Source of the DNA: Elusimicrobiota bacterium
Lineage (GTDB): Bacteria > Elusimicrobiota > Elusimicrobia > Elusimicrobiales > Elusimicrobiaceae
NCBI GenBank assembly: GCA_031258375.1
Contig: JAIRMX010000079.1
Span: forward strand, 1 to 26,579
Direction: 5' to 3'
DNA: 26,579 nt
The first letter of the stretch is position 1. Each line of letters opens with the position of its first letter. Below are positions 3,699 to 23,660 of the stretch, piece by piece. The notes beneath the pieces were generated by a model, which was not told where the DNA came from, made no database searches, and saw only the letters and a list, made by a program, of their open reading frames with translations. Both the position numbers and the translations under genes were made by a program.

Positions 3699-4187
3699 TT
3701 ATTTCACGCTTTCGCATAGTTCTTTTCCATAGTTTGTTATTCCGTTACATTCGGTTTTGTTCGGATTGGAGGAATTCTTGAACCAAATTACGAAATGAAG
3801 GTCCATATTGTTTACACAATTACTTCTCGTATCACTGTGTCCCGGGCAAAATTCAATTGCGGCATAATTAACTCCCAACGATGGGATAACCCCGCTTAAA
3901 TTATCAAACGCTCCACCATTACACAATAAATAGCTATCATCAAGTTTTACCGGACAGACTTTTGAGAAATCAATATCTAAATCCGCAAAAGAAACAGCAT
4001 AGTCTCCATGTATTAAATAATAATGTTCTTGGGCATTTCTTAGGCTGTATGCCAGCTGCACAAGGTTCATAAGGCGAGTTTTGTCAACGGCTTTTTTGTA
4101 TTGCGGCAGCGCAATAGCGGCGAGAATGCCGATGATTAAAACCGCCACTAATAATTCAATCAGCGTGAAACCTTTTTTATTTCTCAT
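3699..4187 (-). CDS. Type IV pilin-like protein (prepilin N-terminal methylation motif) #1
   Basis: MRNKKG|FTLIELLVAVLIIGILAAIALPQY class III signal with Glu+5; Cys-rich variable C-terminus; GAGG RBS upstream. Confidence 0.9.
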   Translation of the reverse strand: MRNKKGFTLIELLVAVLIIGILAAIALPQYKKAVDKTRLMNLVQLAYSLRNAQEHYYLIHGDYAVSFADLDIDFSKVCPVKLDDSYLLCNGGAFDNLSGVIPSLGVNYAAIEFCPGHSDTRSNCVNNMDLHFVIWFKNSSNPNKTECNGITNYGKELCESVK

Positions 4188-4213
4188 ACTTTATACCTCG
4201 TTATTTTTTTGCC

Positions 4214-4426
4214 AAACAAAAACGGCCGTTATATTTGAGCCACGAAAATAACCCAAAATATAACAGCCGTAGTTTCCCGTCCGCAAGGACGGGAAACATT
4301 CAGCACGCGACATCAAGAGGATCAGTCCTGACATCGTGTGCTTGATAACGAGCTGTTTTTAGGTTTTTCGTGTGCTTTTGAAATTCTCAAAAGCTCGTTT
4401 TGCCTTCGCAAAACACCCAAAAACAT
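4214..4426 (-). ncRNA. Structured cis-regulatory leader, copy 1 (upstream of pilin #1)
   Basis: P1 GTTTTTGGG/CCTAAAAAC encloses GTTTTGC-GAAG-GCAAAAC and GCTTTTGA-GAATT-TCAAAAGC. Then CAGCTCGTTATCA, a long variable hairpin, GTTTCCCGTCC-TTGC-GGACGGGAAAC, and a 15-bp terminator stem ACGGCTGTTATATTT/AAATATAACGGCCGT plus T tract. Homologous to copies at 15697-15903 and 22889-23098. Confidence 0.8.
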
Positions 4427-4430
4427 TTCA

Positions 4431-4449
4431 AATTTTTATAAGCCGATTA
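4431..4449 (-). promoter_or_regulatory. Conserved promoter-like motif TAATCGGCTTATAAAAATT just 5' of leader copy 1
   Basis: 19/19 identical to 17984-18002 and 18/19 identical to 14489-14507; lies 5-15 nt upstream of each leader's GTTTTTGG. Confidence 0.55.
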
Positions 4450-7800: not shown

Positions 7801-8002
7801 CGGCTTTACGGATTTTTATTTCGCAAAAACTTTTAAAATTCCTCCGGCGGCCGTAAGCGAGCTGATAAATAAATTTACAAATAATATCAAGTTTATTCCC
7901 GCTCCAAACGGCGACGGCATTCGTATTTATCATATTCCAGCCGCCAACGCGATGGAAAATGCAAAAAGGCTGTTTGTAACTTTAAAACGAATATTAAACT
8001 AG
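4898..8002 (+). CDS. mfd: Transcription-repair coupling factor
   Basis: UvrB-homology segment (GEYALRGSVVDIF), CarD/RID (VHHEHGIGRYGG), GDVGFGKT, DEEHRFG, SATPIPRTL, QLYQLRGRIGR, TRG motif RDLEIRGGGELLG, C-terminal TRCF domain. Confidence 0.95.
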   Translation: MQFISAVPNVSAAAFYLAQKQKSGEILFVCKTEEELEEFAAAANTFIPENISLNAAILGENKFSVYSGLYEITTSKENIFAATTYENAKILLPGKKDFLSKIITIKIAQNLQRAHLLAKLEDCGYERTDFTEKQGEYALRGSVVDIFNINSALPCRIYFSGNTISTISLFDIETQNTKTNLSEINIIPFKFAQELSSLKHWTKNFDIYLQNPKEEDLKNFEGSISVLTNFNAENAIDAGLRSNTNFNADLKLFDAEVLRLQKENFKIIFYCLNRGEADRLREVFNDYEGLKKLPAIIAPLRRGFCSFSEKFAYFTSGEIFNRNYRSSALIKDFNSAGAKRLRFKELEAGDYIVHHEHGIGRYGGMKTLENDGIHIDCLIIEFKRGEKLYVPASDFRKIQKYIGLKGKAPKISSLNGNSWKEVKKRVKEDAQKTAKEILKLEALRQANKAQNLFGDERLEREFQDSFPYEQTDDQTKAINEILADIMQQRPMDRVLIGDVGFGKTEVAMRAALKAVLSGSQVIVLAPTTVLAAQHYKTFCARMAGFPARIAMLSRFQSKKEQKITATDIKKGIVDIAIGTHRLLSKDIEFKNLGLCVIDEEHRFGVKQKEKIKAKSLGVHTLMLSATPIPRTLNQSLSSLRDMSVIETAPQGRMPIKTHVLPYNEDIVAAAVREEIARGGQAFYVYNKVENMPSKLSRLQNILPEVRICMAHGQLEDAALETTLWDFYNKKYDMLLASTIIESGLDITNANTLIIENAQDFGLAQLYQLRGRIGRGDKKACCYLLHPEWLLKKQEEDYSVNSFFGKIAKKQKSSTEEAQKRLNAIMEFSELGSGFRLALRDLEIRGGGELLGIRQHGYVNEVGLSLYCDLVSNEVKKLKGEVPPRKFLAAVNLRVAAYIPPDYMPNDSERLRYYKEFMATDDRQQKEDLLHSLENISGPAPIELLNLVEIIQLSQDAGKENIRQVEGGDGFTDFYFAKTFKIPPAAVSELINKFTNNIKFIPAPNGDGIRIYHIPAANAMENAKRLFVTLKRILN

Positions 8003-8333
8003 TAGAAAGATTAATTATATCTCTTTGATATTTTACATGAGCCAAAGGTCTTATTATTTAATATTAGTACATGTCGAACTTTTTAGTTTAAACGAATAGA
8101 TGACTAGCGAATGATATTAGTTCATTATTTCCCTTATATTTTATAGTGAAAAATCATAAAAGATATATACAAAATCTATCTACGCGTCGTTTTTTATTCC
8201 TTATTTTTTTAACAATATTTATATTCGGACGAAAAAACATCGTCCTTGTAATTTTGTTATAATTTCTAAAGACGGCTTGTGTCGGGATAACTTTAAATTC
8301 AAAAAATTATCAACGTATGCGTAAAAGGAGAAA

Positions 8334-14488: not shown

Positions 14489-14581
14489 TAATCGGTTTAT
14501 AAAAATTTGATACTGTTTTTGGTAGTTTCCGCAAGGGAACAAGCTTTTAAGATATCAAAGGCATTCACAATGTTCAAACAG
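14489..14581 (+). ncRNA. Truncated leader, copy 2 (promoter-like motif plus 5' domain only)
   Basis: TAATCGGTTTATAAAAATT, then CTGTTTTTGGTA, GTTTCC-GCAA-GGGAAC, AAGCTTTTAA-GATA-TCAAAGGCA...AAACAG; similarity ends there and no terminator module follows. Confidence 0.7.
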
Positions 14582-15068: not shown

Positions 15069-15653
15069 TTAATTAAACATAAACCTTAACCCAGAGCTTG
15101 GACTTATTGAATATAAATCATAATCAACGCCACTCATATTAACATAATGAATTCCCAAATCAAGTTTTATATCCTCTGATAATGCTGGGGCTATGCCTGC
15201 ATAAAAAGAATATGTAAAATTATTTTCGCTATCCGAATATCCCAAAAAAGAAGCTTTAACTTTAGTTCTCCCTATGCCTGCTCCAAGAACAAATTCTGTA
15301 TCTGAATTTGAGAATTTTTTATTAAATAGGATAGTAAAAATAAAAGAATCTCCTGTCGCTGTTATCCCTTCAGACACTGGCAGTCCTAATTCGTTTCTAA
15401 TAAAACTTGCATCAACTATTGTAACTTGCGTGTGTCTTAAATATTCTCCCTCTATTCTCAAATTTTCAGCCAAAGATATCCCAAGTGATGTTCCTAAAAT
15501 AGGGGCTATATCATCATTCTTATAGCCTGATTCTTTATAATTTATAAAGCCTAATCCAGCTTTAAACGATATATAGGGTTTTACTGATGCTTCTTGAGCA
15601 AACAGTGGAATTACCAAAACCACAGCAACAAACATTATTATCATTTTCTTCAT
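15069..15653 (-). CDS. Outer-membrane beta-barrel protein (OmpA/opacity-like 8-strand type)
   Basis: Signal peptide MKKMIIMFVAVVLVIPLFA; alternating beta strands (YISFKAGLG, LRIEGEY, FVLGAGIG, FYAGI, LDLGIHY); C-terminal GLRFMF. The ORF-track start at 15788 lies inside the leader RNA and is rejected. Confidence 0.8.
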   Translation of the reverse strand: MKKMIIMFVAVVLVIPLFAQEASVKPYISFKAGLGFINYKESGYKNDDIAPILGTSLGISLAENLRIEGEYLRHTQVTIVDASFIRNELGLPVSEGITATGDSFIFTILFNKKFSNSDTEFVLGAGIGRTKVKASFLGYSDSENNFTYSFYAGIAPALSEDIKLDLGIHYVNMSGVDYDLYSISPSSGLRFMFN

Positions 15654-15696: not shown

Positions 15697-15903
15697 AAAC
15701 AAAAACGGCTGTCATATTTGAGCCATAGGAAATAACCCAAGATATAACAGCCGTAGTTTCCCGCCCGAAGGCGGGAAACATTCAACACAAAGCAAAAGGC
15801 TCATGACTTCCTCTCGCTTTGTGTTTGATAACGGTCTGTTTCTGGATTTCCTATGTGCTTTTGATTTCTCAAAAGCTCATCCCTTTCGGGATTCCAAAAA
15901 CGT
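15697..15903 (-). ncRNA. Structured cis-regulatory leader, copy 3 (upstream of the beta-barrel gene)
   Basis: GTTTTTGGA/TCCAGAAAC, ATCCC-GAAA-GGGAT, GCTTTTGA-GAAA-TCAAAAGC, CAGACCGTTATCA, variable hairpin AACACAAAGC/GCTTTGTGTT, GTTTCCCGCC-TTCG-GGCGGGAAAC, terminator ACGGCTGTTATAT/ATATGACAGCCGT plus TTTT. Extended -10 TGCTATAAT at 15946-15954. Confidence 0.8.
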
Positions 15904-16779: not shown

Positions 16780-17757
16780 TTAAAAATTTTGTTTTGAAAG
16801 AACCGTGCTTTCGCAAGCCAGTTTAAATTCTTCTATATTAAATATATTTACGCTGTCAGGTTCTGGCCCCGCTTTGACAACTATTGCGTTTGGATTGTTC
16901 GGAGACCAAAATGTATCCCAAGGTTTATTATAAAAAGCAATTGTCGGCTTTTTAAAGGCCGACGCTATATGCACGGCTGAAGTATCGGGACTAATCAGTA
17001 GTTTGGCACTATAGATTAAGGAAATTAAATCAAACGGATTTTCAGTTTTGAAGAAATAAACGTTTGCAAAATTGTCGTGTAAATTCTTGATTTTGCCCAT
17101 TTGTTTCCTGCTCATATACGGAATAACAATTTGCGGCTTGTCAAATAACTGATTTAGCGTGCTGGCGATTAATTGTAATGTCTCTGCGTTAAAAGTTCTT
17201 CCTTGCGCGTGCGCGAACGGGTTTAACGCGATATATTCCTTTATTCCGTTGGCCGTTAAAAATTCTCGGTTTTTATCTTGGGATTTTTCCGTTAAATGAA
17301 CGTCATAATTATTATCAAAATCTTTTACTCCTAAAGTTTCTAATATTCCTATAACGCTATCTTTTGCATGATTGCCGGAAGAAATCCATTTAATCTCTCT
17401 AACTTTGTCTCGCGAAGCTATTTTTGAAAATAATTTCCAGTTTGGATAATTCTTCTTATACGATGTATCTATAGCCAAATCAAATTTATCTTTTCTAATT
17501 TTCAGTCCGTAATAAATTAGCGTTGGCCAACGGCTGTGCTTATGCAGTCTTCTCATCGGCATAACGTATAATCGGTTTATATATTTATTTTCTTTAAGAA
17601 ATGCTCCTGACGCGCCAAATGTCGCTACGCTTATATTTATCGCGGGATTTGCTTTCTTTAGTTCTCTATATAAAATTGAGTAAATTATTTCGTCACCAAG
17701 GCCTCCATCCGACCTAAAAATTAAAATACTGTTGATATTCTTAATGTTTATAGCCAT
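16780..17757 (-). CDS. Glycosyltransferase family 9 (heptosyltransferase-like, LPS core)
   Basis: ILIFRSDGGLGDEI, KFDLAID, YIALNPFA, LISLIYSAKLLISPDTSAVHIASAFKKPTIAFY. Confidence 0.88.
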   Translation of the reverse strand: MAINIKNINSILIFRSDGGLGDEIIYSILYRELKKANPAINISVATFGASGAFLKENKYINRLYVMPMRRLHKHSRWPTLIYYGLKIRKDKFDLAIDTSYKKNYPNWKLFSKIASRDKVREIKWISSGNHAKDSVIGILETLGVKDFDNNYDVHLTEKSQDKNREFLTANGIKEYIALNPFAHAQGRTFNAETLQLIASTLNQLFDKPQIVIPYMSRKQMGKIKNLHDNFANVYFFKTENPFDLISLIYSAKLLISPDTSAVHIASAFKKPTIAFYNKPWDTFWSPNNPNAIVVKAGPEPDSVNIFNIEEFKLACESTVLSKQNF

Positions 17758-17798: not shown

Positions 17799-17970
17799 AA
17801 TAAAAAGGCGATAATCACTTCTTGAGGGTTCCTAAACGCCCAAAAAAATGAAAATCGCCAACCAGAACCCCTGCGGGTTCTGGTAATATGGCGACTTCAT
17901 CTTTGGCTTAGGAACCAATTTGCTTGTTAAGCAAATTCGTGCTGTTTCTATAAAACAGCTTCCAAAAACA
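17799..17970 (-). ncRNA. Variant structured leader, copy 4 (upstream of GT9)
   Basis: GTTTTTGG/CCAAAGAT encloses GCTGTTTT-ATAG-AAACAGC-AC and AATTTGCTT-AAC-AAGCAAATT. Then ACCAGAACCC-GCAG-GGGTTCTGGT and GGCGATTTTCAT/GTGATTATCGCC plus TTTTT, with a large loop containing TTTGGG. Preceded by the same 19-nt motif as copy 1. Confidence 0.6.
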
Positions 17971-17983
17971 AAGCCTTTCAAAC

Positions 17984-22888: not shown

Positions 22889-23098
22889 CTGTTTTTGGTA
22901 GTTCTGCGCGAGCGGGACAAGCTTTTGAGATATCAAAAGCACTGCTAAAACCAAAGACAGCTCGTTATCAGGCGTGGGATTTTGAGAATTGCAAGCTTAA
23001 AATCTTACGCCGAGCGTTTACTGCCTTCGGGCGGTAAACCACGGCTGTTATGTTTTGGGTTACTGCAAGAAGCTCAAATATAACGGCCGTTTTTATTT
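22889..23098 (+). ncRNA. Structured cis-regulatory leader, copy 5 (upstream of pilin #2)
   Basis: CTGTTTTTGGT/ACCAAAGACAG, GTTCTGC-GCGA-GCGGGAC, GCTTTTGA-GATA-TCAAAAGC, CAGCTCGTTATCA, GGCGTGGGATTTTGAG/CTTAAAATCTTACGCC, GTTTACTGCC-TTCG-GGCGGTAAAC, terminator ACGGCTGTTATGTTT/AAATATAACGGCCGT plus TTTT. Confidence 0.8.
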
Positions 23099-23126
23099 GT
23101 AAAAATAAAAAATAACGAGGTAAATT

Positions 23127-23660
23127 ATGAAAAATAAAAAAGGCTTCACGTTAATCGAAATGCTTGTAGTAGTATTAATCATCGGCATACTTGCCGCCAT
23201 CGCCTTGCCGCAATATTTAAAAGCAGTTGAAAAGGCAAAAATGGCGGAGGCCATTCAAAATGCTAAAGTTTTAGGAGAGTCTGCGCGCAGATATATTTTA
23301 ACCACCGGCAATATGCCGGCTTCTTTTGACGTTCTGGATATTACCGTTCCCTGCACAAAAATAAACGACTACCAATGCTACAATAAAGACTTTTTATACG
23401 ATATTACCGCAGGCGATTATAACGTAATTGGAGTTTTTCGCAAACCGACGGCGGACAACAATATCAAAAGTCAAGCTCCTGCGGGAATAGCTTTTTGGTT
23501 TGGAAGGGACTATTGCTCCGAACAATTCAAAGAAGGCACTTTCGCTTGTTTTGTAAGAAGAAACCTTCCGCAGGCCGACAAGTATTCGCAAATATGCAAA
23601 CTCTTAGCCGGACAAACGGTAATTTCGGTTCCGTATGACGATATCTACATACACCAATGA
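23127..23660 (+). CDS. Type IV pilin-like protein #2
   Basis: MKNKKG|FTLIEMLVVVLIIGILAAIALPQY; Cys-rich variable C-terminus; GAGG RBS. Confidence 0.9.
   Translation: MKNKKGFTLIEMLVVVLIIGILAAIALPQYLKAVEKAKMAEAIQNAKVLGESARRYILTTGNMPASFDVLDITVPCTKINDYQCYNKDFLYDITAGDYNVIGVFRKPTADNNIKSQAPAGIAFWFGRDYCSEQFKEGTFACFVRRNLPQADKYSQICKLLAGQTVISVPYDDIYIHQ

Follow-up and report, generated by a model that had tools for sequence, protein, structure and literature searches.

The locus analyzed here raises the question of whether a segment that lies in the multi-stem junction of a repeated leader RNA, and that changes from copy to copy, really pairs with the loop of the terminator further downstream, and of what such a pairing might do for the gene that follows. 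The leader, ~205 nt in length, is repeated in gut Elusimicrobia up to ~60 times per genome, 5' of genes for pilins and other surface proteins, and the window (the whole stretch of DNA analyzed, 26,579 nt) contains three copies of canonical form along with a divergent variant and a fragment. The features to which the argument refers are the following, bit scores and E values being those of the covariance model (CM) R1:

15699-15903, minus strand: copy 3, full leader (197.6 bits), preceding the beta-barrel OMP gene 15069-15653 (minus strand; Pfam OMP_b-brl)
15846-15855, minus strand: variable junction of copy 3, CATAGGAAAT, 5' strand of the long-range helix, forming 10 perfect pairs with 15724-15733
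15724-15733, minus strand: loop strand of copy 3, ATTTCCTATG, 3' strand of the long-range helix, within the 24-nt terminator loop 15718-15741
15836-15845, minus strand: P1 3' strand of copy 3, CCAGAAACAG, whose possible partners are the P1 5' strand (15894-15901) or the terminator 5' arm plus loop start
15705-15754, minus strand: terminator hairpin of copy 3 (5' arm 15742-15754, loop 15718-15741, 3' arm 15705-15717), followed by a T-run at 15699-15704
4216-4426, minus strand: copy 1, full leader (199.8 bits), preceding the pilin-like gene 3699-4187 (minus strand; Pfam N_methyl)
4365-4372 (CACGAAAA) with 4241-4248 (TTTTCGTG), minus strand: variable helix of copy 1, 8 bp
17802-17971, minus strand: copy 4, divergent short variant (34.8 bits, E = 9e-9), preceding the GT9 glycosyltransferase gene 16780-17757 (minus strand; Pfam)
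17908-17916 (GGTTCCTAA) with 17827-17835 (TTAGGAACC), minus strand: variable helix of copy 4, 9 bp
22889-23096, plus strand: copy 5, full leader (199.5 bits), preceding the pilin-like gene 23127-23660 (plus strand)
22942-22950 and 23054-23077, plus strand: junction and terminator loop of copy 5, with the variable helix missing
14518-14578, plus strand: truncated leader fragment, model positions 6-68 only, from the P1 5' strand to P3 (25.3 bits, E = 5e-6)

The preliminary description had proposed that the junction segment after P3 is complementary to the terminator loop in copies 1, 3 and 4, and each of these pairings was found at the positions given for it, together with the AGC/GCT pair said to flank it in copies 1 and 3. 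The pairing had been considered weak in copy 5, and there the variable helix is indeed absent, the longest complementary run being only the conserved CCAAA/TTTGG. The fragment at 14518-14578 (plus strand) is located upstream of, and divergent from, a DUF1646/MgtC/aminotransferase operon.

Reading and aligning the copies gives a common architecture that comprises, in 5' to 3' order, P1, P2, P3, the variable junction, the P1 3' strand, a linker, P4, P5 and the terminator. P1, which is formed by CTGTTTTTGG in its 5' strand and CCAAAAACAG in its 3' strand and is paired at 97.5% across copies, makes up a three-way junction with the P2 hairpin, which covaries, and the P3 hairpin, which is nearly invariant in the copy alignment. 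A hypervariable segment of 8-11 nt separates P3 from the P1 3' strand, and a conserved linker lies 3' of the latter. Hairpins P4 and P5 are followed by a predicted large-loop intrinsic terminator consisting of a 13-bp G+C-based stem (98% paired in 50 copies), a loop of ~23 nt and a T-run (TTTTT). Outside the pairing strand, the main family has conserved loop residues, UUGGGUU and GCUCAA. A consensus terminator scan called no terminator at the leaders because it permits only loops of 3-8 nt.

The covariance model R1 was built without the junction-loop helix and then run on the genomes of relatives, where it matched 24/24 genomes of the genus and 109 of the 120 genomes of the family, but none of the 16 genomes from the order's other families. 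Within the Elusimicrobiaceae the leader is conserved in six of the ten genera sampled, and the genomes bearing it include Elusimicrobiaceae, Elusimicrobium and Avelusimicrobium MAGs from termite, rumen, chicken and horse guts. The source genome, a 1.49-Mb MAG in 237 contigs derived from a termite-gut metagenome (assembly 84% complete), contains ~58 copies according to nhmmer. In the family survey, several near-complete genomes have no more than 1-5 copies, others belonging to the same genus exceed 50, and a complete, single-contig 1.6-Mb genome of the family (G044) has zero copies. Many contigs of the source MAG stop within or beside a leader copy (e.g. C118, C128, C65, C21, C15 and C215), and the repeat is probably a main cause of the fragmentation of this assembly; since contigs break at the leader, copy numbers obtained from MAGs are likely to be underestimates. 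No family in Rfam 15, including c-di-GMP-I/II, cobalamin (RF00174), T-box and sRNA-Xcc1 (RF02221), matches the leader either at the gathering score or at E<=10, and no description of it was found in the Elusimicrobia literature on RNA motifs and pilins. A BLAST comparison of copy 3 with 72,556 plasmids, a method of low sensitivity for this purpose, gave no match either. The leader is hence an uncatalogued RNA family of the Elusimicrobiaceae.

The pairing itself was assessed by searching, without fixing the register, for the longest uninterrupted Watson-Crick run that junction and terminator loop can form, with a threshold of at least 7 bp. A perfect helix of 7-12 bp was found in 43 of the 50 full copies of the source genome, all of which have distinct junction cores (50/50), whereas a run of at least 7 bp occurs in only 9 of the 2450 combinations that join the junction of one copy to the loop of another. 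Complementarity is also maintained in further homologues: the same search, applied after CM-column parsing to 88 full-length copies from 23 other species, identified a perfect helix of 7-11 bp in 86 of them. Double-sided changes affect 9 of the 10 helix pairs in the alignment of the source-genome copies (A2) and 10 of 10 in that of the other 23 species (A3), where pairing extends to 90% of the cells; when all helices of A3 were taken together as one structure, none of 500 shuffles reached the observed values. The copy-specific, covarying pairing put forward in the preliminary description, which had named a multi-genome covariation analysis as one way to check it, thus passed that check decisively. 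The junction-loop helix and its copy-specific covariation are certainly real and far beyond chance.

A further property of the helix is its strictness. Over 129 helices and 1196 bp there are zero internal G-U pairs and zero mismatches, and such a total absence of G-U is not predicted by the ordinary compensatory evolution of RNA helices. The duplex energy averages -10.8 kcal/mol (range -4.8 to -15.8), with a G+C content of 37%. The variable helix is also kept in the short-loop subfamilies, where it takes up 8-10 of the 10-12 loop nt.

The sequence of the helix follows descent. Paralogues all differ in helix sequence, whereas orthologues from different species have the same one, as illustrated by CAGTAACGCT, which is common to the source genome, G023 and G009; among the 86 copies from related species, 70 distinct cores can be counted. 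Near-identical cores provide examples of compensated changes, with ACTAAGCGG and ACTAACCAG each accompanied by a matching loop and TAATACGAGT and CAATACGAGT likewise each matched by its own. Given that orthologues keep the helix sequence, drift among old paralogues would suffice to generate the diversity, and the simplest reading of these comparisons would be that selection acts on complementarity only and that the paralogues are old. Selection for orthogonality received no support, the mean maximum cross-run being 5.16 in the observed set against 4.87 ± 0.15 in shuffled cores, so that the set is not more orthogonal than expected. The suggestion in the preliminary description that the copy-specific sequence could tune each gene is not supported by these comparisons, even though the duplex energies cover a wide range.

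The helix is missing in 7 of the 50 source-genome copies, copy 5 among them, as against 2 of the 88 copies from relatives, the genomes of which are mostly better assembled. Because all 10 positions of the C74 junction find their match in the loop of C210b, while C74 (96-358) and C210 (2531-2793) are each mismatched internally, some of the helix-less copies probably arose when the assembler, or else recombination, joined two different copies across the conserved ~110 nt that separate the arms. Copy 5 (22889-23096, plus strand) and the C84 copy (7809-8014) have a terminator loop in common and both lack the variable helix; this loop (ACTGCAAGAA) resembles a direct, not an inverted, repeat of the junction (ACTGCTAAAA), and the pair may represent either genuine leaders that are silent or an artefact of assembly. 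In the C106 copy (1794-2055), P1 to P5 are intact and the terminator is absent, P5 abutting the ribosome-binding site and ATG of a gene for a secreted protein, and this copy looks like a natural terminator-less variant.

The remaining helices and the position of the element indicate in which molecule the pairing operates. P1, P3, P4 and the terminator stem present many G-U variants and few other mismatches in both A2 and A3. Read on the sense strand, the helices neighbouring the variable one accept G-U but not A-C: at the P3 pair 63-79, for instance, 27 copies have UA and 23 have UG, and P4 contains many GU and UG pairs. At the ends of the variable helix, 13 neighbouring G-U combinations stand against 5 A-C, and the junction strand has a modest bias of A over T and C over G; both this G-U excess and the A/C richness of the junction are weak sense-strand signatures. 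In most source-genome copies with enough flanking sequence, an ORF on the same strand starts ~20-170 nt downstream, and co-orientation with the following gene is also seen in the 23 other species. Sense-strand G-U variation together with this co-orientation identifies the element as a transcribed, structured leader, and we conclude that the junction-loop pairing acts in RNA.

The genes downstream of the leaders code mostly for type IV pilin-like proteins with an N-terminal methylation motif, and otherwise for beta-barrel OMPs, GT9 and GT8-like glycosyltransferases, lipoproteins and small membrane proteins. Several conserved elements accompany the leader. The motif CGGCTTATAAAAATTTGAT, which most copies have ~20 nt 5' of P1 (at window positions 4431-4449, for example), is probably the promoter of the leader family itself. 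In 16 copies (e.g. C130, C23, C176 and C196), a second conserved module, ATTGGACAAAAAGCAGTTATTTTCTCTCTTT, is located after the T-run, and the start codon of the pilin gene lies ~165 nt downstream in copies with this module, as opposed to 20-40 nt in the others. The invariant linker CTCGTTAT is complementary to ATAACGAGG at the ribosome-binding site (window positions 4197-4204 and 23112-23119, and many other copies) and to ATAACGAG, also at the ribosome-binding site, a motif that follows the terminator in many copies; ATAACGAGG is similar to the terminator 3' arm as well. This complementarity between linker and ribosome-binding site may add a second level of regulation, acting on translation. 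A single NusG gene was identified in the source genome, which thus gives no sign of a dedicated antitermination factor. Two GGDEF proteins are encoded in the same genome, and the leader might possibly be a second-messenger riboswitch, by analogy with the multi-copy c-di-GMP riboswitches that precede pilin genes.

As regards the function of the helix, we propose, with confidence evenly balanced between acceptance and doubt, that it is the anchor, or toehold, of a transcription antiterminator switch. According to this model, the terminator loop, once transcribed, would be captured by the junction, which is always single-stranded, and the anchor helix so formed would extend through the P1 3' strand (CCAAAAACAG) into the start of the loop and the terminator 5' arm. 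The extended helix would constitute the antiterminator: with P1 displaced and the terminator 5' arm held, the polymerase would read into the gene for the pilin or other surface protein. Were P1 instead locked by a ligand or a protein bound at the conserved three-way junction, invasion would halt at the anchor, the terminator would close and transcription would end. The stability of P1 would therefore be the likely control point, and the variable helix a permanently exposed toehold beside the region of strand exchange.

Several lines of evidence are in keeping with the antiterminator model. The terminator 5' arm and the start of the loop (CTGTT-ATAT-TTTGG) repeat the whole P1 5' strand (CTGTTTTTGG), and the P1 3' strand can consequently pair with either. 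When the variable helix is forced in ViennaRNA, it extends via the P1 3' strand into the terminator 5' arm. Nearest-neighbour folding, which is calculated without pseudoknots or kinetics, favours P1 plus the terminator by 8.3 ± 4.3 kcal/mol in the full-length RNA, whereas in transcripts that end before the 3' arm the minimum-energy fold exchanges P1 for the long-range helix in 39 of the 43 matched copies, against 0 of the 7 unmatched ones, the mean advantage of the long-range fold over P1 at this stage being 6.0 kcal/mol. A scan over transcript length places the flip to the terminator at 10-12 of the 13 nt of the 3' arm in 28/43 matched copies (range 5-13), and at 4-6 nt in six of the seven unmatched copies, the seventh flipping at 12. 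The predicted energy landscape is that of a kinetically controlled terminator/antiterminator switch.

The evolutionary evidence for competition with P1 is more uneven. That the TTT(T)GGG of the loop mimics the P1 5' strand and competes with P1, as the preliminary description had it, holds for the main family in so far as the mimicry is concerned; the extension based on it (CCAAA/TTTGG) shows no covariation, however, with duplex energies of -4.76 kcal/mol for self and -4.69 kcal/mol for cross combinations (permutation p = 0.24), and TTTGG is absent from the short loops of the divergent subfamilies that keep the variable helix. The competing extension as a whole (CCAAA/TTTGG and AACAG/CTGTT) is near-invariant in sequence. 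Likewise, the two mutually exclusive folds suggested at the outset are plausible in terms of folding energies, but the covariation resides only in the variable part, which does not compete with P1, and not in the extension. In the short-loop subfamilies the helix fills most of the loop and would strain a closed stem, a circumstance that suggests competition without amounting to proof.

The same observations bear on the strongest alternative, a static tertiary pseudoknot in which the helix docks the terminator hairpin on the three-way junction and coexists with P1 and the terminator, with no switching involved. We consider this reading possible, if rather doubtful. Such a static fold could be the leader's aptamer or protein-binding platform, or else a stable small RNA that ends at the terminator. 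The main-family loop of 23 nt, in which 7-9 and 3-6 unpaired nt flank the pairing strand, offers room for a helix of 8-10 bp beside a closed stem and is thus long enough to accommodate the helix, P1 and the closed terminator together, which is the reason why a static pseudoknot stays a rival. It is also consistent with the fact that the universally conserved part is the variable helix alone and not the P1 mimic, with the conserved loop residues UUGGGUU and GCUCAA, which could make tertiary contacts, and with the strong preference of the full-length RNA for P1 plus the terminator, a state to which the helix could simply add. A permanent helix that uses 8-10 of the 10-12 nt of a short loop is, on the other hand, hard to reconcile with a closed stem, and a static fold leaves unexplained both the repeat of the P1 5' strand in the terminator 5' arm and loop start and the sharp difference in predicted co-transcriptional behaviour between matched and unmatched copies.

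A second alternative takes the diversity of the helices as its starting point. That the gene-unique helix is an address, ~60 near-identical leaders being opened singly by a trans-acting nucleic acid or by some process that depends on exact identity, appears very improbable. The more specific form of the idea, according to which a separate RNA or DNA key targets the unique junction or loop of each leader and opens one of ~60 pilin-like genes, we judge to be highly unlikely. The uniqueness of all 50 junction cores in the source genome, the strict Watson-Crick character of the helix, which recalls guide-target pairings, and the stability of the sequences among orthologues would all agree with a key acting in trans. 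Nevertheless, the 9-11-mers recur elsewhere in the genome only at a few scattered places, about as often as chance would predict, and no array of keys was found in the 84%-complete assembly; the cores, moreover, show no greater mutual orthogonality than shuffled sets, and intramolecular pairing already accounts for the complementarity.

The absence of G-U pairs from the helix led to the testing of a DNA-level reading, in which the two helix arms, which are perfect inverted repeats of 7-12 bp located ~110 bp apart, would serve as sites for recombination around a gene-specific core, much like lox or FRT spacers, and in which inversion of the intervening ~110 bp would destroy the terminator. A requirement for identity at the DNA level would indeed leave all 129 helices free of G-U pairs and of mismatches, and sequence logic dictates that flipping would turn the terminator 5' arm and abolish the hairpin. 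Against this stand the lack of any flipped copy among ~58 leaders of the source genome and 88 full-length ones from 23 other species (nhmmer and CM matches, with partial matches inspected), the lack of conservation of the arm flanks from one subfamily to another, and the sense-strand RNA signatures of every other helix. No strand-change joint was detected either in source-run contigs over 19.6 kb of the window, at ~8x depth and in contigs that drop rare variants, and four "skip" joints in those contigs are cross-matches between paralogous copies. Gene-specific recombination sites are accordingly extremely unlikely. An invertible DNA switch, as a candidate class, is not supported, for the inverted repeats are present but both orientations were never found.

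Finally, the idea that the complementarity is due to chance, or is incidental to a palindromic mobile repeat (MITE/REP-like) without RNA function, which the high copy number and the frequent breaking of contigs at the leader might evoke, can be set aside as next to impossible in view of the contrast between self (43/50) and cross-copy (9/2450) matches, the double-sided changes in every helix, the fixed orientation relative to downstream genes and the conservation in six of the ten genera sampled of the family. The REP/MITE-like dispersed palindrome is, as a class, effectively refuted, its orientation being gene-fixed and G-U being accepted on the sense strand only.

Having weighed these alternatives, we return to the toehold of a transcription antiterminator as the preferred reading. 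A leader family that reaches ~60 copies in 1.5 Mb and is found in most of the sampled Elusimicrobiaceae genomes appears to control large families of pilin-like genes, a hallmark of this little-studied gut phylum. If the helix is an antiterminator toehold, the leader would be a natural attenuator with a sequence-free, gene-specific anchor by which the kinetics of strand exchange are set, a principle for which the examples to date are mainly synthetic RNA devices, and the ~130 natural helix variants would provide a ready-made mutational series. Identification of the effector could reveal how the Elusimicrobia regulate their surface. Should the address reading prove true, the choice among many pilin-like genes would amount to RNA-addressed variable surface expression.

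Among known systems, cobalamin riboswitches use a regulatory kissing loop between L5 of the aptamer and L13 of the expression platform. The leader is similar to them in that a long-range pairing ties a sensor domain to the loop of the regulating hairpin, but it pairs a junction strand, rather than a loop, with that loop, forms a hypervariable helix of 8-11 bp instead of a few pairs and lacks similarity to RF00174. T-box leaders are also multi-copy and terminator-controlling elements with one short gene-specific segment; in their case, however, this segment pairs with tRNA in trans, whereas that of the leader pairs with its own terminator loop, and the T-box model does not match it. Toehold-mediated strand displacement is the basis of synthetic toehold switches, in which, as proposed here, a short, perfectly paired, single-stranded toehold adjoins a helix that is then displaced by branch migration; the leader differs in being natural, intramolecular and co-transcriptional, and its displacement step is inferred. 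A parallel in terms of genomic deployment is given by the c-di-GMP riboswitches (GEMM-I/II) of Clostridioides difficile and Geobacter, many copies of which precede pilin, adhesin and other surface genes and exert their effect on terminators (PMC6200980, PMC11477304, PMC8835794). The leader resembles them in its multiple copies before pilin and surface genes and in the presence of GGDEF proteins in the source genome, but its architecture is different and none of their Rfam models matches it even at E = 10.

The leader can also be compared with the terminator/antiterminator expression platforms of transcriptional riboswitches and attenuators. As in these, a 5' leader contains a multi-stem sensor closed by P1 and followed by an intrinsic terminator, the P1 3' strand has an alternative partner in the terminator 5' arm, and folding calculations predict that the terminator fold wins in the full-length RNA and the alternative in the nascent one. 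In contrast to them, the alternative would be nucleated here by a strict Watson-Crick helix of 8-11 bp between a free junction strand and the terminator loop, the helix sequence differs in each paralogue and the loop, at ~23 nt, is unusually large. Apart from the lack of a curated-family match, then, the leader resembles a riboswitch or attenuator expression platform in all but its hypervariable, strictly Watson-Crick helix, its very large terminator loop and its extreme copy number.
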